DNA of 64,000 bases from an uncultured Chloroflexia bacterium. GTDB lineage: Bacteria > Chloroflexota > Anaerolineae > CG2-30-64-16. The DNA lies in the NCBI GenBank assembly GCA_963810095.1, contig CAWEMM010000006.1:1376001-1440000 (forward strand), written 5' to 3'. The first letter of the stretch is position 1. Every line of letters starts with the position of its first letter. A program made the translations under genes and the position numbers. Shown here in pieces: positions 1,508 through 12,532 of this stretch. The notes below the pieces were generated by a model, which saw nothing but the letters and a program-made list of their open reading frames with translations, did no database searches and was not told the origin of the DNA.

Positions 1508-3073
1508 ATGATCGGCTATCAACTGCGCCAACGCGAATACCTGCTGCAAATCAGCCGGGCGATGACGTCCCGGCTGGATCTCCCGTCCCTGCTGCGCCTG
1601 ATCTTGACCAGCGCGGCCGATCTCGTGCGCGCCGAGGCAGGCGTGATTGCCCTGCGCCGCGGCCGTTCCTCGACCCTGGTCATACACGCGTCGTATGGCG
1701 TGCCGGTGGCGCTGTTGCCCAGGTTTGCACCCTTGCTGACCGATTTCCCGCTCAAGCCCGAGGAATACCGGGTTCCCGACCTGGAGGCTCGGCTGAACAT
1801 GGTGGCCCGGGCCGTCCGCCTGCCGCTGAGCCAAGTCATCGCGCTCCCGCTCATCGTCCACGACGGCCTGTCCGGGGTGATCTACCTGTTCCGCAGCGGC
1901 AGCATTGCGTTCACCGAAAACGATCAGGCCGTGCTCTCCAGCTTCGCCGACCAGGCGGCCATCGCGGTCCGCAACGCGCAACTCTACCAGCAGGTGAGCG
2001 CGGAAAAGCGCCAGCTTGACGCGGTGATCCAGCACAGCGCGGACGGCGTGATGATTCTCGATCCCGACCTGCGCATCCAAGTCTTTAACCAGGCATTGAG
2101 CCGCCTTTTGGGGTGGCCGGCAGACCAGGCCGTCGGCCGGCCCTGCTACCAGGTGCTGGCGCTGGAAGAAGTCGTGGGGGACGACCTGTGCAGCGCAGCC
2201 GGTGGCGAGGCTGTTTTCGCCGGCGGCCAGCCCAGGACGGCCGACGGTGTCGTCGTGCGACCGGGTGGCTCGCGCGTCTCGGTGAGCGTCACCTATTCGC
2301 CGCTGTACGACGAGGACGGGCGGCTGACGAACGTGATTGCGAACGTGGTGGATGTGACCCGCTTTCGTGAGGCGGAGGAAATGAAGGCCTCGTTCGTCTC
2401 GGTCATTTCTCACGAACTGAAGACCCCTGTGGCTCTGATCAAGGGGTATGCGAGCACGCTCGCGCGCGAGGACGCCGAGTGGGACCGGGAGACGCTGCGC
2501 GAGGGACTCCAGGTGATCGGCGAGGAGAGCGACCGCCTAAACGCCCTGATCAACAACCTGTTGGACGCCTCACGCATCCAAGCGGGCGGCTTTACCGTCG
2601 AGCGGGCCGACCTGGACCTGGCCGGGCTGGCCGCGTCCGTCGTCGAGAACTGGCGCATTCAAACCGAGCGCCACCGTTTCATCCTTGATTTCCCCCCGGG
2701 CTTTCCCGACGTAGAGGGTGACGAAGAGCGCCTGCGGCAGGTGCTGAACAACCTGCTGAACAACGCGATCAAGTACTCGCCCGAGGGCGGCGAGGTGCGG
2801 GTGGGGGGCTGGCGCGAGGGCGACCACGTGACGACATACGTCGCGGACCAGGGCATCGGCATTCCAGAGGCCGAGCAGGCCAACCTGTTCCAGCGCTTTT
2901 ATCGCGTCGATTCGAGCCTGCGCCGCTCGACGCAGGGCGCGGGGCTTGGGCTCTTCCTGTGCCGCTCCATTATCGAGGCGCATGGCGGGCGGATTTGGCT
3001 GCGAAGTGAGCCGGGCAAGGGTACGACCGTCTTCTTCACCCTGCCGGTCGCAGGCTCCAACGCGGGACGCTGA
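1508..3073 (+). CDS. GAF/PAS sensor histidine kinase
   Basis: GAF (FADQAAIAVRNAQLY), PAS, H-box SHELKTP, N-box NLLNNAIKYS, DQGIGI, GAGLGL. Confidence 0.95.
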   Translation: MIGYQLRQREYLLQISRAMTSRLDLPSLLRLILTSAADLVRAEAGVIALRRGRSSTLVIHASYGVPVALLPRFAPLLTDFPLKPEEYRVPDLEARLNMVARAVRLPLSQVIALPLIVHDGLSGVIYLFRSGSIAFTENDQAVLSSFADQAAIAVRNAQLYQQVSAEKRQLDAVIQHSADGVMILDPDLRIQVFNQALSRLLGWPADQAVGRPCYQVLALEEVVGDDLCSAAGGEAVFAGGQPRTADGVVVRPGGSRVSVSVTYSPLYDEDGRLTNVIANVVDVTRFREAEEMKASFVSVISHELKTPVALIKGYASTLAREDAEWDRETLREGLQVIGEESDRLNALINNLLDASRIQAGGFTVERADLDLAGLAASVVENWRIQTERHRFILDFPPGFPDVEGDEERLRQVLNNLLNNAIKYSPEGGEVRVGGWREGDHVTTYVADQGIGIPEAEQANLFQRFYRVDSSLRRSTQGAGLGLFLCRSIIEAHGGRIWLRSEPGKGTTVFFTLPVAGSNAGR

Positions 3074-3107
3074 AGGTGCAGGAGCCAGCTGAGGATCCAG
3101 GAGCAAG

Positions 3108-3809
3108 ATGAAGAAACGCATCCTTGTCGTCGACGACGAGCCGCGCATGCGCCGCTTCGTGCGCATGAACCTGGACCTGGAAGGGTACGAGGTGCTGGAG
3201 GCGGACAATGGGCTGGTCGCACTGCAGAAGGTGCGCGACGACATGCCCGACCTGGTCCTGCTCGACGTGGCCATGCCCGAGATGGACGGGTTCGAGACGC
3301 TGGAGCGCATCCGCGAGGTCTCGGCCGTCCCCGTGATCATGCTCACCGTCAAGAGCGACGAGGACGACCGTATCCACGGGTTGGACTTGGGCGCGGACGA
3401 CTACGTGACCAAGCCCTTCAGCCCCCGGGAGTTGTCGAGCCGCATTCGGGCGGTGCTGCGCCGGGTGGAGCCGGCCAAGGGCAGTGTCGAAGAGCCGCTG
3501 GTGATCGACGAAGATCTGCAGATCGACTTCCCGCGGCGAACCGTCATCGCGCGGGGCGAGCCCGTCAAGCTGCGGCCCACCGAATACCGGCTGCTGCTAC
3601 ACCTGGTCGAGAACGCGGGCTGGATCGTGCCCCAGGAAACGCTGCTGTCGAAGGTGTGGGGACCGGAGTACCGGGACGACAACCAGCTGTTGCGCCTGTA
3701 TATTACCTACCTGCGGAAGAAGATCGAGCCGGACCCGGCCAACCCGAGGTACATCCTCACGGAGCGCGGCGTCGGTTACCAGTTCACGAACTACAAGAAG
3801 GCTGCCTGA
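3108..3809 (+). CDS. OmpR/PhoB-family response regulator
   Basis: [24 protein letters not shown], winged-helix [23 protein letters not shown]. Confidence 0.96.
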
Positions 3810-4121: not shown

Positions 4122-5531
4122 CTACGCGAGCCGCACGGCCAGCGGAATGCGGCCCGACGCCGGCGGCTGCCAGGGGAGGGGGCCGACAACCGTCGCGCCC
4201 GGCCCGAGCATCGGCGCCGCAAACTGCGCAGCGCATTCCCAAGGGGCGGCATCGGCACGCCGGAAGCAGACTTCGCCGGTGATCCCGTAGAGATATGCAA
4301 GACCGGGATTCGTGACCCGGACGTAGAGCGCGTTTTCGTGCCCCACCTCGGCCGCCTGTGCCTGGCTCCCGCCATCGGGCCTCTGGCGCAGCCACACATC
4401 CGCGCTGCCTGTGATCAGGCCCCCCTCAGACTTGCCGTAGACCACTGGGTGCCCGGCTGGATTGCGGCGGGCTGAGAAGATCGTCGAGGCATACCGGCTG
4501 ACGTAGGCGTACGGGATGTAGCCGTAGCCGGGCTGCCAGACGCCGTCCCACGCCCACGGCTGCCATGAGTTGCGCAGCAGGAAGTAGCCGCCGCCGGGCG
4601 CCCGTGGGTCGTCCTGATACCCCACTATGGTCATCGCGTGCCCCTCGCGCATCGGCTCGCCGGCCAGGGGCAGCGTGATCTTGCCCCAGCGCGTCATAGC
4701 CGACGACTTGAACCAGCTGTCGAAGACGGGCAGGGAGAAGGCGATACTCCGCCCTTCGACCAGGCACGCTTTCATCCCGGCGATGTCGGTGCGGCTAAAC
4801 TCCTGCGCGGGCTGGATGGCAAAGCCGAGGTCGCCGCCCGCGGCCAGCGGCGGCGGTGCGGCGAGGTCAGAGCCGGTCGCAGGCTGTGGCACGTAAGGCC
4901 AGAGTGCTTCGAGCGGCGCGCCCGCCTCGCCAAGGCAGCGCATGCCCAGTGACAGGTAGGTGCCGCTTCGTCCGGGTAACCCATCCCGCTCCTTGCACCA
5001 CCAGTAGACGTACTCCTCGGAGAGGTCCAGGTCGTGGGGCGCGCCGGCGGCAAGTTCGAGCTGCTCTCGCAGGGCCAGGACGGCATGCGCCACGCAGGTC
5101 GGGCGCTTGCCCTGGCTGCGCAGTGGGGGAAGTTGGTCCAGGAGATGGTGGCTGATCGGAAGCGGGAGGCGGCTTTCGGCGACGTACGGCGGCAGCGCGG
5201 CCATGCGTGCAGCGGTGACGGCCGGATCTTCGAGGAGCGCGCCCAGGGGGTAATCGGCAGCCGCCGTTTCCATTTCAAGGGCGGCGTCGACGCCGCGGCG
5301 CGCGGGCAGGGTGAGCCGTTGTGCGGCGCTAACGATCGTGTCGAGGCGCGGCCGCTCCAGGCCGAGCATCGAAGCCAACCGAGTGCGGGTGGCCTCGTTC
5401 GTGCCGTAGATGCCGACCAGTTGTGGCGCACTGTCGATCCACAGATCGTTCAGTGTCTGCACCTGGCCGGCATCGAGGCCGGGCACGGCCGAAAGTGGGG
5501 CGGACGCGGGTATCAGATCAGGCGGAAACAC
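4122..5531 (-). CDS. C1 (papain-family) cysteine peptidase
   Basis: SQGKRPTCVAHA (Q/C), LSEEYVY, GHAMTIVGY (His), LLRNSW (Asn). Confidence 0.9.
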   Translation of the reverse strand: MFPPDLIPASAPLSAVPGLDAGQVQTLNDLWIDSAPQLVGIYGTNEATRTRLASMLGLERPRLDTIVSAAQRLTLPARRGVDAALEMETAAADYPLGALLEDPAVTAARMAALPPYVAESRLPLPISHHLLDQLPPLRSQGKRPTCVAHAVLALREQLELAAGAPHDLDLSEEYVYWWCKERDGLPGRSGTYLSLGMRCLGEAGAPLEALWPYVPQPATGSDLAAPPPLAAGGDLGFAIQPAQEFSRTDIAGMKACLVEGRSIAFSLPVFDSWFKSSAMTRWGKITLPLAGEPMREGHAMTIVGYQDDPRAPGGGYFLLRNSWQPWAWDGVWQPGYGYIPYAYVSRYASTIFSARRNPAGHPVVYGKSEGGLITGSADVWLRQRPDGGSQAQAAEVGHENALYVRVTNPGLAYLYGITGEVCFRRADAAPWECAAQFAAPMLGPGATVVGPLPWQPPASGRIPLAVRLA

Positions 5532-5540
5532 GCTCGTCCC

Positions 5541-6720
5541 TTAGATGACGCCCATCTCCTTGCCCACCTTCTCGAAGATCGCCAGCACGCGGTCCATCTG
5601 CTCGAAAGTGTGCGTCGCCATGTAGCTGGTGCGCAAGAGCTCGCGGCCGGGCTGGACCGCGGGAGCCAGTACCGGGTTCACAAACACGCCCTCGTCGAAC
5701 AGGCGCCGCCACATGAAGAGCGTGAGCATCTGCTCGCCAAGGATAACTGGAATGACGGCGGTTGTCGAGGTGCCGATGTTGAAGCCCAGCCGCCGGTAGC
5801 CGTCACGCATGTAGTCAGCGATCTTGCACAAGTGCTCGACCCGTTCCGGCTCCTCGCGCATGATCTTCAAGGATGCGAGGGCCGCCGCCGCGTTCGAGGG
5901 CGGGATGCTGGCGCTGAAGAGGAGCGACCGTGCGTGATGCTTGATGTAGTGCACCACGGGCTCGTCGCCGGCGATAAAGCCGCCCAGCGATGCGAACGAC
6001 TTGCTGAAGGTGGACATCACCAAGTCGATGTCGCGCGTCATGTGGAAGTGCTCGCCTGTGCCCCGCCCGCAACCCAATACGCCGATCGCGTGTGCATCGT
6101 CGACCAGCAGCCGGGCGCCGTACTTTCGGCACAGGGGGATCAACTCGGGCAGCGGCGCGATATCGCCTTCCATACTGTACAGCCCATCCACACACACCAA
6201 CTTGCCTTTGTCTTCGGGCAGCCGCTCCAGGATGCGCTCTAGCTCCGCCATGTCCTGGTGGGCGAACCGCTTGGTCTCGCCGTAGCTCAGCTTTGCGCCG
6301 TCGACCAGGCTGGCGTGATCCTCTTTGTCGAGGATGACGTAGTCTCCGCGGCCGATCAACGCGCTCGATGGCCCCGAGGTTAGCCTGCATGCCGGTGGAG
6401 AAGACGACGGCCGATTCCTTACCCACGAAATCCGCCAGCTCGTGCTCGAGCTGCTCGTGCATCTCCAGCGTCCCGTTGAGGAATCGCGAACCCGTGCAGC
6501 TGGTTCCGTAACGTTTGATCGCCTGGATGGCCGCCTCGCGGACCCGCGGATCGGTGGTCAGCCCGAGGTAGTTGTTGGAGCCGCACATGATGAGGCGGTG
6601 GCCCTTATAGACTGCCTCCGAGCCCTCGTTTTCGGTCAGCGGGATGAAGTAGGGATAATAGCCGGCCGCAATGGCCTCTTTGGCTTCGGTGAATTCGTGC
6701 GTTTTGGCGAAAAGATCCAT
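5541..6720 (-). CDS. spt: Serine palmitoyltransferase-like alpha-oxoamine synthase (PLP), frameshift near 6366
   Basis: [48 protein letters not shown]. ORFs 5815-6720 and 5541-6359 join as GAISALIG on removing one base. Confidence 0.8.
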
Positions 6721-6809
6721 GAGTGCTCCTTCAGCTAGGGGTCGAGTCCTATCCTGTGGCGTGCACGGGGGTGAATGCCGCCGTGTACGTCACAGATACA
6801 GACGTGACC

Positions 6810-7790
6810 TCAGGTAAGGTAACCGTGTTCCCGATACCAATGATACGCCCGTTCTGCCGCCTCGCGGAAAGGAAGAATGGGAAACCCGAGTTCGGTCACG
6901 GCTTTGCCTGAGTCAAAAAAGACATTGTGCGCGGAAAGTCGAAGCTGGTCACCACTGGCCATCGGGCGGGGGATAAACCGGTTAGCCAGGTCCAGCACAG
7001 TCGCCGCCGGCGGCAGCGCCCAGCCGGGAATGATCCAGGCAGGCGGGCGGGTGCCGACGATATCGGAAATGATAGCAGTAATCTGGCGATATGTCAGGTT
7101 TTCGCCCCCCAGGATGTATCGCTCGCCTACCCGGCCCAGTTCGGCGGCCGCGAGGTGCCCCGCGACGACCGCATCGATGTCGACCATGCACAGGCCCCCC
7201 GGCGGACAGCCGGGCAGGGGCCGCTTTGCCATTTCCACGATCAAGCTGCCTGAGATCAGGTTATGGTCGCCCGGGCCCATGACTGCGGCGGGGTTGACGA
7301 TCACGGCGGGCAGTCCCAGCTTGACCGCCCTGGCCACCTCCAATTCGGCGAGGTGCTTGCTGTGGGCGTAGGCGAAACCCTTCTCGCGCGCGTCGAAGGG
7401 CTGGCTTTCGTCCGACGGCCTTCCGTCGCGCCGCACGCCCACGGCCGCGGCGGACGAAGTATGCACGACGCGCGAAACGCCCGCCCGCAGGCACGCATCC
7501 ATGACGATCCGGGTGCCTTCGACGTTCACCCGGCGAACGGCTGCTTCGTTCGAGCGCCAATAGGATGAAACGGCCGCGACGTGGAAGACCCGGTCGCAGC
7601 CGTCGACGGCGGCCCTGACCGCACCGGCGTCGAGAATGTCGCCGTGGACATGCTCGACCGGGAGGCCGTCCAGCGCGATGGTGCTCGAGTTCTTCCGCCT
7701 TAAGATGCGGACGTCGTCTCCCCGGCGGACGAGCGCGGCGGCCAGTTGGCTGCCGACGAACCCTGTCGCGCCGGTGACCAGCACCTTCAC
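6810..7790 (-). CDS. Extended SDR / NAD-dependent epimerase-dehydratase (HpnA/DFR-like), candidate ceramide reductase
   Basis: VTGATGFVGS, HTSS, YAHSK, GERYILGG. GTG start overlaps the upstream TGA. Confidence 0.85.
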   Translation of the reverse strand: MKVLVTGATGFVGSQLAAALVRRGDDVRILRRKNSSTIALDGLPVEHVHGDILDAGAVRAAVDGCDRVFHVAAVSSYWRSNEAAVRRVNVEGTRIVMDACLRAGVSRVVHTSSAAAVGVRRDGRPSDESQPFDAREKGFAYAHSKHLAELEVARAVKLGLPAVIVNPAAVMGPGDHNLISGSLIVEMAKRPLPGCPPGGLCMVDIDAVVAGHLAAAELGRVGERYILGGENLTYRQITAIISDIVGTRPPAWIIPGWALPPAATVLDLANRFIPRPMASGDQLRLSAHNVFFDSGKAVTELGFPILPFREAAERAYHWYREHGYLT

Positions 7791-8920
7791 AGAGGCTTCT
7801 CGTAGATGCGGTAGGTCTTGTACTTACGGCCGCCCATGCGCTCGATGATCGTGTTCATCATCGTGTTGGTTTCCAGGATCCACGAGCCTTCGACGCGCTT
7901 GTAGCCGTGTTTGAGGGCTTCCTGGGCCGTCTCCAGGTAGAAGATGGCATCTACGCCGAGGCCGCGGTACTCCTCGATCATGCCCATGATCATCAAGCGG
8001 CACTGGTCGATGTGGCGCCGCGCGAGCAGGAACTTGGGCAGGCCGAGCGGCCACATGTGCCCTCCGCCCGAGCGCTTGAGCGCCTGGTGCAGGTCGGGCA
8101 TGGTGAGCGACACGCCCGCGGGCCTGCCGTCCGCAGTTTCGGCGATAAAGATGAGGTTGGGATCGACCATCGGCTTGAGGCTGCCGACTAGGTGGTCGAT
8201 CTCGTGGTCGGTAAGGGGCACGAAGCCCCAGTTCTTCTGCCACGCGCCGTTGTAGGCCGCCTTGATGAGCGCAATCTCCGAGTCCAGGTGCTTCATGTCG
8301 ATCTTGCGCACGCGCAGGCCGTGCCGCTCCATCGCCTTCTTGGAGACTCGGTACAGTTTCTGGGGCGCCTCGTCCAGAGCCTTCTGGATGTCGTAGATCC
8401 AGGCGAACAAGTCCATCGCCTTGACGTACCCGTGGCATTCGATCAAGGCGGGATAGTAACGCGGGTTGTGGGTAAGCATGAGCATCGGCGGAGTATCAAA
8501 ACCGTCGATCAGGGTGCCCACCTCGTCGTTCGTCGAGAAGTTCAGGGGGCCGCGGATGAGGTTCATCCCCTGCAAGCGGCACCAATCCTCTGCGGTCTGG
8601 AAGAGCGCGCCCGCAACTTCGGGGTCGTTGACCGATTCGAAGAAGCCCCAGCCGCCGGCCAGCTCGTTGTGCACCCGGTTATGGTTGTCGTTGACCACGC
8701 CGCCGATGGTCCCGACGATCTTCCCCGCCCGGCGAGCGACGAAAAGCTGGTAGCGCGAGTGCTCGTAGAAAGGGTTCTTTTTGGTGTCGAAGAATGCGAG
8801 TCGTTCCTCGATCAGGGGCGGCACCCAGCACGGGTCGTCCTGGTAGAGCTTGAAAGGAAACTGCACATACGCGGACAGCCCTTTGCGGCTATTGACGGCT
8901 TCGATGTCGATGTTGCTCAT
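7787..8920 (-). CDS. GNAT-fold N-acyltransferase, bacterial ceramide synthase (bCerS)-like
   Basis: DPCWVPPL, KNPFYEH, GFFESVND, GPLNFSTNDEVG, HNPRYY, NWGFVP, SWILETN. AGGAGG RBS precedes ATG 8920. Confidence 0.8.
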   Translation of the reverse strand: MSNIDIEAVNSRKGLSAYVQFPFKLYQDDPCWVPPLIEERLAFFDTKKNPFYEHSRYQLFVARRAGKIVGTIGGVVNDNHNRVHNELAGGWGFFESVNDPEVAGALFQTAEDWCRLQGMNLIRGPLNFSTNDEVGTLIDGFDTPPMLMLTHNPRYYPALIECHGYVKAMDLFAWIYDIQKALDEAPQKLYRVSKKAMERHGLRVRKIDMKHLDSEIALIKAAYNGAWQKNWGFVPLTDHEIDHLVGSLKPMVDPNLIFIAETADGRPAGVSLTMPDLHQALKRSGGGHMWPLGLPKFLLARRHIDQCRLMIMGMIEEYRGLGVDAIFYLETAQEALKHGYKRVEGSWILETNTMMNTIIERMGGRKYKTYRIYEKPL

Positions 8921-8936
8921 GGTGCCTCCTCTGACG

Positions 8937-9767
8937 TTATTCCTGTCGAGGCTCGTGCTTGCGACGGGCCCGCCCAATGAGTTGGTCGAGTACGGGGAAC
9001 TGCAGGTCGCCGAGCAGGCTGGCGGCCCGGGCCGCGGCGCTCATTTCCAGCCCGGGCACGATCGAATAGCGGTTGTGGCGTATGCCGTGGAGGATTTCGC
9101 GCGCGACGTACTCAGGCGAAACGACCGTGCCGCCGTAGACGTCGTGGGCCTCGGGAGGGCGGAGGGGGACTTCCCCTGTGAGCTGCGGTGTGTCGGTGTC
9201 TGGCGGATAGACTACGGCGACGTGGATGCCGTACGGCTTGAGCTCGATCCGCAGCACGTCGGACAGCCCCCGGAGCGCGCACTTGGACGCCGCGTACGCG
9301 GTGTAGCCATACGTCGGGAGCAAGGCTGCGCCTGAGGCAACATTGACGATAAAGCCCGCCCGCCGTTCGATCATGCCGGGCATCACGGCTTTAATCACGT
9401 GCAACGCACCGAAGTAGTTGACGTCCATCATCTCGTGAAAGACGTCAAGATCCAGGTCCGCGAAATAGCCGGGGTGGGTGACGCCGTGCGAGTTGACGAC
9501 GATGTGGGGGAGCCCCACCCGGCGCGTTACTTCGGCGACCGCGGCGGCGGCTTGTGCAGGGTCGGCCACGTCGGCCGCCGTCGCGCCGCACACCTGATCG
9601 GGCCGTGTGCAAGCGGCCTTGACTTCGTCCAGGGCCTGTGCCAGGCGTTCCCGGTTGCGGGCCACCAGCCAGACATGGGCTTCTTCGCGGGCAAAAGCGC
9701 GGGCAGCCGCCAGTCCGATGCCGCTGGAGCCGCCCGTGATGAGAATGACTTGGTTACGGAAGGTCAT
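8937..9767 (-). CDS. SDR oxidoreductase, 3-ketodihydrosphingosine reductase (KDSR/Tsc10)-like
   Basis: ITGGSSGIG, MDVNYFG, GYTAYAASKCALRGL, ELKPYGIHVAVVYPPDTDTP (PPDTDTP is the KDSR-type segment). Confidence 0.8.
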   Translation of the reverse strand: MTFRNQVILITGGSSGIGLAAARAFAREEAHVWLVARNRERLAQALDEVKAACTRPDQVCGATAADVADPAQAAAAVAEVTRRVGLPHIVVNSHGVTHPGYFADLDLDVFHEMMDVNYFGALHVIKAVMPGMIERRAGFIVNVASGAALLPTYGYTAYAASKCALRGLSDVLRIELKPYGIHVAVVYPPDTDTPQLTGEVPLRPPEAHDVYGGTVVSPEYVAREILHGIRHNRYSIVPGLEMSAAARAASLLGDLQFPVLDQLIGRARRKHEPRQE

Positions 9768-9819
9768 GAAATGAATGCTCGAGCGCGCGTGGGTACGTAC
9801 GCGAGGTAAGATTATGTGT

Positions 9820-9849
9820 ATTATATAACACCGGCGGGTCGCGATGCAA
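9820..9849 (-). promoter_or_regulatory. Sigma70-type promoter of the SDR-GNAT-epimerase-SPT operon
   Basis: Minus strand TTGCAT-18 nt-TATAAT about 50 bp upstream of ATG 9767. Confidence 0.5.
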
Positions 9850-9918
9850 GCGCCATGAACGAACGGACTGGGCCTTAAGGCCAGTCTACGTGGGCCGTCC
9901 CGGCCGTGCGCCGGAGAG

Positions 9919-12477
9919 TCAGGACTTTAAGCTGGCCCGCAGCAAGGCTTTGGTCAGTTCCTTCGTGTCCAGGGCGTAGTCATGCTCGAGCACCGGCCCC
10001 ACGCAGGCGGGACAGCCGTTGTCGCATGGGCAGTTCGTGACCAAATCGAGCGCCGCGGCCAGCACATCGGGCATCGATTGGAAAAGCTGCTCGGCGTAGC
10101 CGACTCCGCCGGGCGTGCGCTCGTAGATCGTAATGGCGGGGCCGCCCGTGTTCCGGTCTTCTGGCTCGGCCAGCACGCCGAGGTCGCGGCCGTCACACAT
10201 GAGGAAGAGCGGTGCGACGCCCTCGATCAAGGCCGCCGCGCCGCCGAGCCCCGACCGCGTCCGGATGCCGGACTCGGCCCGGTGGTGGCACGACTGGCAC
10301 AGCGTCACCAGGTTATCGTGGCGGTTTGCGACCTTCCAGGCGAGGGCAGCAGGCAGCCCTTCGCGCCGTGCTTCGTCGGCGACGAACGCACGGAAGGGGA
10401 CCTTGTGGTGCACGTCGTGCTGGCGGCCCGCCATCTCTAACGTGCCGCACCCCTGGCAGCGGTAACCGTCGCGCAGGCGCACGGCGTCGCGGGTGGCGGC
10501 CCATTCCGGTCCGTAGTCGTTCGGGTCAGATAGCCACGCGCCGGCGGCTTTGAGCGCCTCGACCGTACGTTCGGGAAAAGCCAGCCAGGCCGCCTGTGTG
10601 TCCAGGATCTGTTCGGGCAGGTCGATCTCCCCGTAGCCGAGCACCTCGTTCGAGCCGCGCTGCAGGATCTTGTAGCTTGTCGCCTGCGAGGTAACCCGCA
10701 CGTCGCCCCAGCCGAGCAAGTAGGGCGCGGCTTCGTCCTCCATTCTCCCGCGCGCTTGCAGCACGTCGATTCTTTCGCCTATGACGGGGCGAGTGTAGAA
10801 GGCGGCCTCGATGCCGCGAACGGCCGCGATCCCCGCTTCCCAGTCGAGCCGTTCGACCACGTACGACGCGCCTTCGTGGAGATAGATCGCGCCTTCGTAT
10901 AGCAGCAGTGGGACTCCTTCGCGATCCAACTCGCCGATGACGACGGGTTTTCCGTCTTCGCCGCGCGCCTGGATCAGCACCCGGTCGCTGCCTGCGCTCC
11001 GCAGGCTGACCGCTTGCGTCGGGCTGCCCTCGCCGGCCCAGAAGTAGCGCCCGCCTGATAAGTAGAGCTGTCCGGCCTCGACCATATCTGTAAGCAGCCC
11101 GGGCACCGCGGCTGAGCCAAACTTCTCTTCTTGCCCCAGCGGCAGCTCGGCTGCGGTGCAAGCCAGGTGACCGGCGAGGATCACCTCGTTGTCCGGGTTG
11201 ACACGAGCGTGCTCGGGCGACTGCTGGAGCAGCCAGCGCGGGTGGGTAATGACGTACTGGTCGAGCGGCCCGGCGCCGGCGACGAGCACTGCTACGGAAG
11301 CGCCTTGCCGCCGGCCGGCCCGCCCCATCTGCTGGCGGGCGCTGGCGATGGTTCCCGGATGGCCGGCGAGGATGGCTGCATCGAGGTCGCCGATGTCGAT
11401 GCCCAACTCAAGCGCGTTCGTCGCAACCACTCCCCGCACTGTTGCCTCTCGCAGCCCTTTTTCGATCTCCCGCCGGTCTGCCGGCAGGTAGCCACCCCGG
11501 TAGCCACGGACGGTGTGCCGCGCCTGGCGGGGCAATTCGTCGTGCAGGTGGGTCAGCATCAGCTCTGTGGCAAGCCGGGCGCGACCGAAGAGGATCGTCT
11601 GCACGTCGTGGCGGAGGAAGTGGGCCGCAAGCTCGGCGGATTCCTGAACGGTGCTGCGGCGGATGCCCAGGTCCGGGTCGACGACCGGCGGGTTGTAAAA
11701 GAGGATGTGCTTTTCGCCCTGGGGTGCGCCGTCCTGCTCCGGTCCGACAACGGTGACCGGGGCTTCGACCAGCCGCTCGGCCAACTCGCCCGGGTTGGCG
11801 ATCGTGGCAGAGGCGAGGACGAACTGGGGCCGGCTGCCGTAGAACGCGCAGAGACGGCGCAAGCGGCGCAAGACGTTCGCGACGTGCGAGCCGAACACGC
11901 CCCGGTAAACGTGCATTTCGTCCACAACCACGACGCGGAGGGAGGCGAAGAACGCGGCCCAGCGGGGGTGCTGGGGCAGGATGCCCATGTGCAGCATGTC
12001 GGGGTTCGAGAGGATGATGCGCGACGTATCGCGAATCCTGGTTCGCTGCGCCGACGCCGTGTCGCCGTCGTAGGCCGCAGGGAGCAGGGACAATTCTGCC
12101 AGGCGTGCGAGCGCGCTCACTTCGGCTAACTGGTCGTGCGCGAGCGCCTTCGTCGGGAACAGGTACAGGGCCCGAGCCCGAGGCTCGGATAGTAGCCGCT
12201 GGAGCACGGGGAGGTTGTAGCAGAACGTCTTGCCGCTGGCGGCCGGGGTCGCGACGGCAACGTTTTCGCCCCGCAGTGCGGCTTCGACTGCCGCGGCCTG
12301 GTGCTCGTAGAGTGCGTGGATGCCGCGCGACGCCAGTGCCGCCCCAATGCGAGCGTCGAGCCCGGCGGGAGCGGGTTGATAACGGGCGGGCCGGGCGGGC
12401 AGCCGTTCCCAGCGCACCACGTTGCTCATAAAGCGCGGGTCCAGGCGCAGCGCCTGAAGCGCGGATTCTACAGACAT
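9919..12477 (-). CDS. DEAH-box helicase with DUF1998 (MrfA/YprA/Hrq1 family) and inserted HNH nuclease domain
   Basis: TPAASGKT, FPTKALAHDQ, DEMH, SAT, TNALELGIDIG, QQMGRAGRR, C-terminal CPCDNGCPAC, HNH insert. Alternative start 12495. Confidence 0.93.
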   Translation of the reverse strand: MSVESALQALRLDPRFMSNVVRWERLPARPARYQPAPAGLDARIGAALASRGIHALYEHQAAAVEAALRGENVAVATPAASGKTFCYNLPVLQRLLSEPRARALYLFPTKALAHDQLAEVSALARLAELSLLPAAYDGDTASAQRTRIRDTSRIILSNPDMLHMGILPQHPRWAAFFASLRVVVVDEMHVYRGVFGSHVANVLRRLRRLCAFYGSRPQFVLASATIANPGELAERLVEAPVTVVGPEQDGAPQGEKHILFYNPPVVDPDLGIRRSTVQESAELAAHFLRHDVQTILFGRARLATELMLTHLHDELPRQARHTVRGYRGGYLPADRREIEKGLREATVRGVVATNALELGIDIGDLDAAILAGHPGTIASARQQMGRAGRRQGASVAVLVAGAGPLDQYVITHPRWLLQQSPEHARVNPDNEVILAGHLACTAAELPLGQEEKFGSAAVPGLLTDMVEAGQLYLSGGRYFWAGEGSPTQAVSLRSAGSDRVLIQARGEDGKPVVIGELDREGVPLLLYEGAIYLHEGASYVVERLDWEAGIAAVRGIEAAFYTRPVIGERIDVLQARGRMEDEAAPYLLGWGDVRVTSQATSYKILQRGSNEVLGYGEIDLPEQILDTQAAWLAFPERTVEALKAAGAWLSDPNDYGPEWAATRDAVRLRDGYRCQGCGTLEMAGRQHDVHHKVPFRAFVADEARREGLPAALAWKVANRHDNLVTLCQSCHHRAESGIRTRSGLGGAAALIEGVAPLFLMCDGRDLGVLAEPEDRNTGGPAITIYERTPGGVGYAEQLFQSMPDVLAAALDLVTNCPCDNGCPACVGPVLEHDYALDTKELTKALLRASLKS

Positions 12478-12532
12478 GGTTGGATTATAATCCATGCCCC
12501 CCGAACGCGCTGGCCTGGGTGGGCGGGCTGGG

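Follow-up and report, generated by a model that had tools for sequence, protein, structure and literature searches.

Does a member of the Chloroflexota carry its own genes for making ceramides, and if so, why would they include two reductases for a single keto group? These questions are raised by a 64,000-nucleotide stretch of DNA from an uncultured Chloroflexia bacterium (assembly GCA_963810095.1, contig CAWEMM010000006.1, positions 1,376,001 to 1,440,000), which we call the window; the organism is one of soil or sediment. On its minus strand, between positions 5541 and 9767, the list of open reading frames (ORFs) contains four co-oriented ORFs that encode a classical short-chain dehydrogenase/reductase (SDR), a tandem-GNAT protein, an extended SDR and an alpha-oxoamine synthase (AOS). 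We consider it likely, from comparison of the sequences, that this region is a four-gene operon for the de novo synthesis of a (dihydro)ceramide-type lipid in an Anaerolineales (Chloroflexota) host. An earlier note, made from the letters of the window, had proposed such an operon, with a serine palmitoyltransferase (SPT), a GNAT of the bCerS type and two reductases, one of them a KDSR-type SDR. That proposal now has support from profile scores and trees, from the synteny found in other phyla and from co-occurrence. Homology and synteny give the ceramide reading good support. The analysis shows the families of the proteins, the order of their genes and its conservation in relatives, the co-occurrence and an intact synthase allele in a metagenome contig; we infer the substrates and cofactors, the order of the steps, and what the product is and where in the envelope it lies. 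The parts of the locus are as follows.

8937-9767, minus strand: classical SDR of the 3-ketodihydrosphingosine reductase (KDSR) family, 276 aa (Pfam adh_short, KDSR homology).
7787-8920, minus strand (ORF 7787-8977): predicted tandem-GNAT N-acyltransferase of the bCerS/YghO family, 377 aa (structural model, homology).
6810-7790, minus strand: HpnA-like extended SDR with a NAD-dependent epimerase / 3-beta-HSD fold, 326 aa (Pfam, NCBIfam).
5541-6720, minus strand: predicted SPT-type AOS, 392 aa without base 6366, split into 5815-6720 and 5541-6359 (NCBIfam, PDB, tree).
6366, minus strand (C on the plus strand): single extra base interrupting the SPT frame (orthologue alignment, metagenome contig).
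9820-9849, minus strand: promoter-like TTGCAT (9849-9844), 18-nt spacer and TATAAT (9825-9820) (read directly).

The genes are closely packed. The classical SDR and GNAT genes are 16 nt apart, the extended SDR gene begins with a GTG that overlaps the GNAT stop codon (a 4-nt overlap), and 89 nt separate it from the synthase gene. Because stop and start codons overlap and the gaps are short, the four genes fit a single transcript. The likely GNAT start is the ATG at 8920, which is preceded by GGAGG and gives a protein of 377 aa, the modal length of its family. The four co-oriented minus-strand genes described in the earlier note are borne out by the ORF list, and all of the motifs it quoted are present in the translations (YAASK and YPPDTDTP in the classical SDR; WVPPL, GFFE, GPLNFSTN, NPRYY and WGFVP in the GNAT; TFSKS in the synthase). 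Its promoter stands in part: the TTGCAT and TATAAT hexamers are present some 52 nt ahead of the start codon of the SDR gene, where they can be seen as a putative promoter, but a scan for consensus promoters and terminators gave nothing above chance for the operon. TTGCAT matches the -35 consensus at three of six positions, so the scan did not list the pair, and an excess over chance is unproven. An Rfam search of the window found nothing. A search for RNA data sets containing the window listed none, a result with no bearing on expression.

The synthase carries the TFSKS active-site lysine motif, together with DDAH and EDHAS, as in enzymes of fold type I that depend on pyridoxal phosphate, and its two pieces match Pfam Aminotran_1_2 with 144.1 and 29.4 bits. 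SerpalmtaseCFB is the best NCBIfam model for both pieces (147.5 and 344.6 bits), with the bioF, Kbl and ALAS models scoring lower. Among PDB sequences, the C-terminal piece matches the Sphingobacterium SPT best (3a2b/8guh, 280.9 bits); Sphingomonas SPTs score 208-215 bits, two solved cysteate acyltransferases 169.7 and 155 bits, Kbl 162 bits and BioF 144 bits. A tree setting SPT against BioF and Kbl, the check suggested at the outset, gave the same grouping. This quick maximum-likelihood tree covered 48 of the 94 extracted AOS sequences (the other 46 were omitted, and its rows include no HemA reference), and it places the window synthase in a 42-row clade with an SH-aLRT support of 96. That clade also holds the Sphingomonas parapaucimobilis Spt, the AOS of the E. 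coli yghO locus and sequences from Rubrobacter, Streptomyces and Myxococcus; E. coli BioF, E. coli Kbl and the second AOS of the host genome fall outside it. These comparisons support assigning the synthase to the SPT clade, and not to BioF or Kbl.

Membership of this clade does not fix the amino-acid substrate, which cannot be read from the sequence, and the SPT scores of the synthase are below the curated cut-offs. The enzyme might use cysteate, alanine, glycine or another substrate in place of serine, and the product, made by an analogous series of three steps, would then be a sulfonolipid, a 1-deoxy lipid or some other N-acyl amino-alcohol lipid. Published precedents exist, in that capnine synthesis is described as employing an AOS, a KDSR-like SDR and an N-acyltransferase (PMC11211663), and 1-deoxy- and lysine-ceramides are reported in work on the Black Sea (PMC11334938). 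Nevertheless, the synthase scores far better against the solved SPTs than against the cysteate acyltransferases, and it nests in a clade with the Sphingomonas Spt, and we regard a non-serine substrate as improbable.

In the assembly, the synthase gene is interrupted. One extra base, a C on the plus strand at 6366, splits it, and the first frame ends in NLGAI at the junction. Orthologues read NLGTISALVGRGDYV in a single frame across the break site in the alignment, and omission of base 6366 yields one open frame of 392 codons. The SPT gene is intact in every close relative (G338, L103, L104, L105 and L119), and the SPT-clade orthologues that we extracted have uninterrupted frames except for a split copy in the genome G395. 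Four freshwater-sediment metagenome runs from one study contain 27-44% of the sampled words of the window. Site 6366 is covered in one of them (X4) and has no coverage in X1-X3. A contig from X4 (record 27; 424 nt, depth 3.5) spans 6023-6447 with no other differing letter and with one base missing at 6366. Because the gap in this otherwise identical contig falls exactly where the orthologue alignment predicts it, and because the close relatives are intact, an error is the likeliest explanation, and the frameshift is probably a fault of this assembly and not a feature of the organism.

It is conceivable, if unlikely, that the cluster is instead a decaying remnant, with a frameshift that is real in the strain, an inactive SPT and no production of sphingoid lipid. 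The assembly does carry the extra base, which does not lie within a homopolymer run, and what opposes it is one low-depth contig, with three of the four runs lacking coverage of the site. A remnant would nonetheless have to be reconciled with that contig, as well as with two synthase halves that contain no additional stop codons and share 83-90% identity with intact orthologues, and with three neighbouring operon genes that are all intact. In the G395 copy (L094, 8966-9783), the SPT-type gene matches in two overlapping pieces, and this may be another frameshift or assembly error.

The classical SDR is a candidate for the reductase that acts on the synthase product. It scores 165.8 bits against Pfam adh_short and has the features of its class, including TGGSSGIG, Arg37 and Ser145-Tyr158-Lys162. 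G12-G18, S145, Y158 and K162 are invariant in the alignment of its orthologues. It also contains YPPDTDTP, a segment typical of human KDSR. Sequence scores against PDB and NCBIfam do not separate KDSR from other SDRs (83.9 bits for Tsc10, 8jat, versus about 86 bits for FabG-type enzymes). A full scan of 1.84 billion representatives returned 146,854 matches, with eukaryotic KDSR orthologues among the best 150. Ten of these 150 were picked for their longer N-termini: one is a cluster with an Acanthamoeba castellanii '3-ketodihydrosphingosine reductase' (P0275), and two come from eukaryotic transcriptome sets; one is named 3-dehydrosphinganine reductase by JGI. The window SDR is 39% identical to P0275 over 261 aa in a pairwise comparison (E 2e-53), and YPPDTDTP and the catalytic residues align between it and the eukaryotic sequences. 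The motif P-[PS]-DT-[DQ]-TP is present in all 13 aligned SPT-adjacent orthologues from Anaerolineae, and a looser form of it in 99 of the 150 best representatives. The automatic Atlas name of the nearest clusters, '3-dehydrosphinganine reductase family', was treated as a lead only.

Taken at the level of sequence, the classical SDR is a KDSR-family protein, nearer to eukaryotic KDSR than to SDRs generally. A FastTree of 144 KDSR-type sequences was poorly resolved (24 of 141 branches starred), and we do not argue from it that the Anaerolineae proteins are sisters of the eukaryotic ones, nor do we make a claim on their origin. The window protein lacks the N- and C-terminal extensions of eukaryotic KDSR, starting at the Rossmann fold and ending before the C-terminal extension, and thus has no counterpart of the membrane anchor. 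We propose that it has KDSR activity, that is, NADPH-dependent reduction of 3-ketosphinganine, for which the genetic link to SPT is circumstantial evidence.

The GNAT protein is hard to place by profile. Its Pfam match is marginal (Acetyltransf_6, 21.4 bits against a cut-off of 22), and searches of NCBIfam and PDB sequences gave no match. The AlphaFold2 model (pLDDT 90.5, pTM 0.88) is confidently predicted to have a tandem-GNAT fold, and in a structure search it matches tandem-GNAT amine N-acyltransferases with a probability of 1.0 and TM scores of 0.6-0.7, among them glucosamine N-acetyltransferase, the clavulanate tandem GNAT and mycothiol synthase. Databases contain over 6,000 relatives of the protein, of which the closest with a name are labelled 'Chloroflexi' or 'Anaerolineae bacterium', and the motifs listed above fall in columns that the family conserves. 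A tblastn search of plasmid-labelled records found homologues with 35-41% full-length identity in Rubrobacter, Streptomyces, E. coli (yghO), Sphingomonas and Roseomonas. The Rubrobacter radiotolerans and Streptomyces homologues sit in aminotransferase-GNAT-epimerase operons, and those of Sphingomonas parapaucimobilis and Roseomonas (35-37% full-length identity) adjoin LptF/LptG paralogues. This is the same position as that of Caulobacter cerS (CC_1154), which adjoins lptG2 and lptF2 (PMC11324152, Fig. 4 legend). Membership of the bCerS/YghO family is supported by these sequence relationships, with the likeness to Caulobacter bCerS drawn through positional counterparts only.

A survey of GNAT neighbourhoods extends this picture. 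It took one genome per species and covered the best 80 of at least 594 relatives (17 named phyla). An SPT-type gene lies within 3 kb of the GNAT in 47 of the 80, and an extended SDR within 4 kb in 38. The association with SPT is concentrated outside the Chloroflexota, where it holds for 46 of 61 relatives, versus 1 of 19 inside the phylum. In the E. coli, Sphingomonas, Roseomonas and Nonomuraea loci, the SPT is more than 3 kb away, outside the retrieved stretch, in pieces or under the 45% identity filter.

The E. coli locus (L006; NZ_MG591698.1, filed as a plasmid; 4525-10122) holds yghO together with genes for a fatty acyl-AMP ligase, an epimerase, an acyl carrier protein (ACP), an SPT-clade aminotransferase and lptF/lptG paralogues, and appears to be a sphingolipid-type cluster under generic annotation. 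The Herpetosiphon-type genomes (G048, G060, G099, G144, G189 and G223, genus g59; L043-L045, L183 and L184) have a main-clade bCerS-like GNAT that is 44-46% identical to that of the window. The AOS search lists no match at E <= 1e-60 in these genomes, and SPT is absent within 10 kb of the GNAT, which by sequence we would call an orphan bCerS-like acyltransferase. The GNAT of some genomes in the phylum sample is near-identical to that of Herpetosiphon geysericola, which identifies the phylum as Chloroflexota. The host genome itself encodes a second GNAT paralogue (G000:C9:612331-613425, L060), 32% identical and belonging to a divergent clade on a long branch. Two other genomes (G076 and G148; L067, 11667-12788, and L068) have a member of this divergent clade some 1.3-1.7 kb from SPT, and such proteins may be alternative N-acyltransferases for a module made of SDR and SPT.

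The extended SDR matches Pfam Epimerase (112.5 bits), its best PDB match is 3wj7 (218.6 bits), and it reaches 314.1 bits on the NCBIfam HpnA model (TIGR03466), whose cut-off is 367.65; the orthologue in G338 scores 325.7. The proteins in the CerR position of Streptomyces, E. coli, Rubrobacter, G007, G292 and G122 score 92-149 bits on the same model. We considered whether the enzyme is a true HpnA, given that it is the best HpnA match of the host genome, and rejected this, since it falls below the cut-off and a search for squalene-hopene cyclase in the 88.5%-complete host genome gave no match. The earlier note had named a second reductase of the CerR type. Its position is right, as an extended SDR with a Rossmann domain lies between GNAT and SPT, but the protein is HpnA-like and distant from the enzymes in the CerR position elsewhere, and tblastn against the epimerase of the E. 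coli cluster gave no match at E <= 1e-8. Judged by these scores, it resembles CerR in position and in its general fold but is not a close orthologue.

How these genes are distributed was examined in a phylum sample of 401 Chloroflexota genomes that includes the host (G000). The GNAT query matched 72 of the 401 at E <= 1e-20 and the AOS query 96 at E <= 1e-60, of which a first tier with at least 46% identity (tier 1) comprises 37 other genomes, one of them unpublished (G227), plus the split copy in G395. With the KDSR-type SDR as query, 30 genomes matched at E <= 1e-40 and 18 other genomes at 40% identity or more; with the HpnA-like SDR, 74 matched at E <= 1e-45 and four others (G338, G346, G121 and G031) at 46% identity or more. 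A tier-1 SPT is present in 17 of the 18 other genomes with a KDSR-type SDR, the exception being G015. In one family (f2), 7 of 24 genomes have both SDR and SPT and 17 have neither; in another (f4), 8 of 9 have both. This co-occurrence is a pattern and not a statistic, as kin are not independent. The KDSR-type SDR gene is directly beside SPT in 10 sampled genomes. Around SPT, 34 regions were compared: the SDR is directly beside it in nine, an extended SDR lies within 3 kb in nine and a divergent GNAT is nearby in two. G007 and G292 have the order SPT-GNAT-epimerase. A tier-1 SPT accompanies the close HpnA-like orthologue in each of the four genomes that have one; a KDSR-type SDR is absent from G346, G121 and G031.

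The complete order SDR-GNAT-extended SDR-SPT was seen only in the host, in G338, in a metagenome locus (L104) and in a genome from an uncultured Anaerolineales bacterium (L119), with an intact SPT in the latter three; two partial contigs (L103 and L105) are consistent with it. L119 is the best named relative, 61-87% identical across the four proteins. The four-gene order is restricted to one Anaerolineales lineage. The operon thus looks as if a module of SDR and SPT had been joined to one of GNAT and reductase.

Another arrangement around SPT was observed in other families of the phylum. In L082 (G122; 5453-11118), the one annotated locus of its kind, a major facilitator superfamily (MFS) transporter gene comes first, followed in turn by SPT, a GT28/MGDG-synthase-like glycosyltransferase gene and the epimerase gene. 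L083, L085, L086, L088, L090-L092 and L094 resemble it in having SPT, a gap of 1.1-1.3 kb and then an epimerase-type SDR. From its gene content, an L082-type locus is a possible glycosyl-ceramide cluster.

Distribution bears also on whether the four genes of the window work together at all. They could be neighbours by descent only, with the GNAT and the HpnA-like SDR acting on something unrelated to the SPT product, and it fits this idea that 18 of the 19 Chloroflexota loci among the best 80 have the GNAT without SPT, as do the Herpetosiphon-type genomes with respect to a tier-1 SPT. Close relatives likewise keep the helicase gene upstream and the ORF downstream of the cluster in synteny, which means that kinship accounts for some of the conservation. 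We nevertheless find it very unlikely that descent is all that holds the genes together: SPT-GNAT-epimerase adjacency recurs in many unrelated phyla, the overlapping codons and short gaps fit a single transcript, and HpnA-like orthologues of at least 46% identity occur only in SPT-bearing members of the same class (G338, G346, G121 and G031).

The reading as a ceramide operon has its own difficulties, and the following observations weigh against it. The summed SerpalmtaseCFB score of the synthase, about 495 bits, is below the equivalog cut-off of 640, so it does not qualify as SPT by curated score. The intact allele is represented by one contig at a depth of 3.5, and the runs are possibly the source sample itself. 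The GNAT of Chloroflexota usually stands apart from SPT, being adjacent in only 1 of 19 loci of the best 80, and since Herpetosiphon-type genomes carry a 44-46% identical GNAT with no tier-1 SPT found by this query, the GNAT family is not strictly tied to SPT. The extended SDR is 25-38% identical to the CerR-position proteins elsewhere, with a far higher HpnA score than theirs. Moreover, the cluster has two reductases for one keto group.

With these points set against the homology and synteny, we still favor a ceramide-type pathway, in which each enzyme would take a step. The SPT-type synthase would condense serine with a fatty acyl thioester to give 3-ketosphinganine, the KDSR-family SDR would use NADPH to reduce the 3-keto group to sphinganine, and the tandem-GNAT enzyme of the bCerS family would N-acylate the long-chain base. 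The HpnA-like SDR would most likely reduce 3-oxo-ceramide, if acylation comes first, or carry out a further oxidoreduction of the lipid. Two reductases may be present because reduction can come before or after acylation; alternatively, the HpnA-like enzyme may have some additional task. A tentative extension, which we put forward as a possibility and no more, is that Anaerolineae build the sphingoid base in a eukaryote-like order (Spt, then KDSR-family reductase, then N-acylation), versus the acylate-first order proposed for Caulobacter, and that the operon of one lineage captured a bCerS-type GNAT and an HpnA-like oxidoreductase for a second ceramide redox step. Such a step, so far undescribed, might re-oxidise or epimerise C3 or reduce a keto-acyl chain. 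If this is true, eukaryotic KDSR would gain its first natural bacterial counterpart with a genetic anchor, namely the spt-linked protein. One small operon that joins a KDSR-like reductase, a reductase in the CerR position, a bCerS-type acyltransferase and an SPT also makes both routes testable side by side.

The surroundings of the operon add one candidate gene and a question about the envelope. Immediately downstream lies the following feature.

4122-5531, minus strand: 469-aa ORF without a Pfam family, beginning 10 nt past the SPT stop.

No Pfam family matches this ORF at E <= 0.001, and it is syntenic downstream of SPT in four of five close relatives (L119, L103, L104 and L105; not L041); its membership of the operon is uncertain. 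By eye, it contains Cys, His and Asn-Ser-Trp segments that we take to be papain-like. About 1.7 kb beyond it, at 1508-3809 on the plus strand, the translations read as a pair consisting of a sensor histidine kinase and a response regulator of the OmpR type. The gene next to the operon on its upstream side, at 9919-12495 on the minus strand, encodes an MrfA-type DEAD-box helicase with an MZB zinc-binding domain, which is syntenic in L041, L104 and L119. Searches for the LpxC and Omp85 families in the 88.5%-complete host genome gave no match, with controls positive in the expected diderms. To our knowledge, Chloroflexota generally lack an outer membrane with lipopolysaccharide (LPS). A host genome without matches to these LPS and outer-membrane markers raises the question of what role ceramides would have in such an envelope.

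The earlier note had regarded ceramide synthesis as a trait not established in the Chloroflexota, and this was overstated. Publications dating from 2024-2025 already address it: Spt-like proteins were found in 218 Chloroflexota metagenome-assembled genomes (MAGs) from the Black Sea, and Cer, Gly-Cer and Lys-Cer correlate with Anaerolineae, in a phylum described there as not previously identified as a producer (PMC11334938). The Spt and ceramide result was repeated in a later paper that calls for culture work (PMC12619533). The Black Sea MAGs resemble our host in phylum and class and in having a sphingolipid potential inferred from an Spt-clade synthase. They differ in what was looked for, as both studies are described as searching for Spt, bCerS and CerR only, without mention of a KDSR-type reductase, and have supplements that may list gene neighbourhoods (PMC11334938, PMC12619533). 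Our literature search, which did not cover supplements, found no paper joining Chloroflexota with KDSR or ketosphinganine. The expectation that automated annotation would hide the cluster proved right, in that annotated homologous loci carry generic names only and the synthase is below the NCBIfam SPT cut-offs. Lipidomic surveys of anoxic waters and sediments attribute ceramides to Anaerolineae, and the cluster offers a concrete set of genes for these lipids.

Among known pathways, that of Caulobacter crescentus comprises Spt, bCerS/CerS (CC_1154) and CerR (CC_1164), and the order of reduction and acylation in bacterial sphingolipid synthesis is disputed (PMC11087976, PMC11324152). The window cluster shares with it an SPT-type synthase, a GNAT-family N-acyltransferase and an extended-SDR reductase. 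In contrast to Caulobacter, it has no dedicated ACP, acyl-ACP synthetase or LptF/G paralogues, it adds a KDSR-family classical SDR, its extended SDR is HpnA-like, and in its host neither LpxC nor Omp85 found a match. The spt-GNAT-epimerase clusters of Actinomycetota, Gemmatimonadota, Myxococcota and others, such as those on Rubrobacter radiotolerans plasmid 1 and in Streptomyces sp. NBC_01001, have the same three families in tight, co-oriented arrangement, some of them in Gram-positive hosts. Their order is SPT-GNAT-epimerase, whereas that of the window is SDR-GNAT-epimerase-SPT, and a KDSR-type SDR was found in none of the 79 loci other than L119 among the best 80 GNAT relatives.

A last comparison concerns the classical SDR, which shares with eukaryotic KDSR/Tsc10 and with Bacteroides BT_0972 the classical-SDR architecture, a Gly-rich NADPH site and a Ser-Tyr-Lys triad. 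Unlike eukaryotic KDSR, it is a protein of 276 aa without terminal extensions. BT_0972 is the 3-ketosphinganine reductase of Bacteroides (PMC9278070). It and the other Bacteroidota ketosphinganine reductases (KCRs), described as the only characterised bacterial enzymes of this activity, are weakly KDSR-like, about 16-30% identical to the eukaryotic enzymes, and are neither clustered with the synthase nor otherwise linked to spt (PMC9278070, PMC11211663). The KDSR-type gene of the window, in contrast, lies in the same operon as spt, and in relatives it is directly adjacent to it. What is new here is an spt-linked KDSR-type reductase, an operon with two reductases that is limited to one Anaerolineales family and an HpnA-like enzyme in the position that CerR occupies elsewhere.

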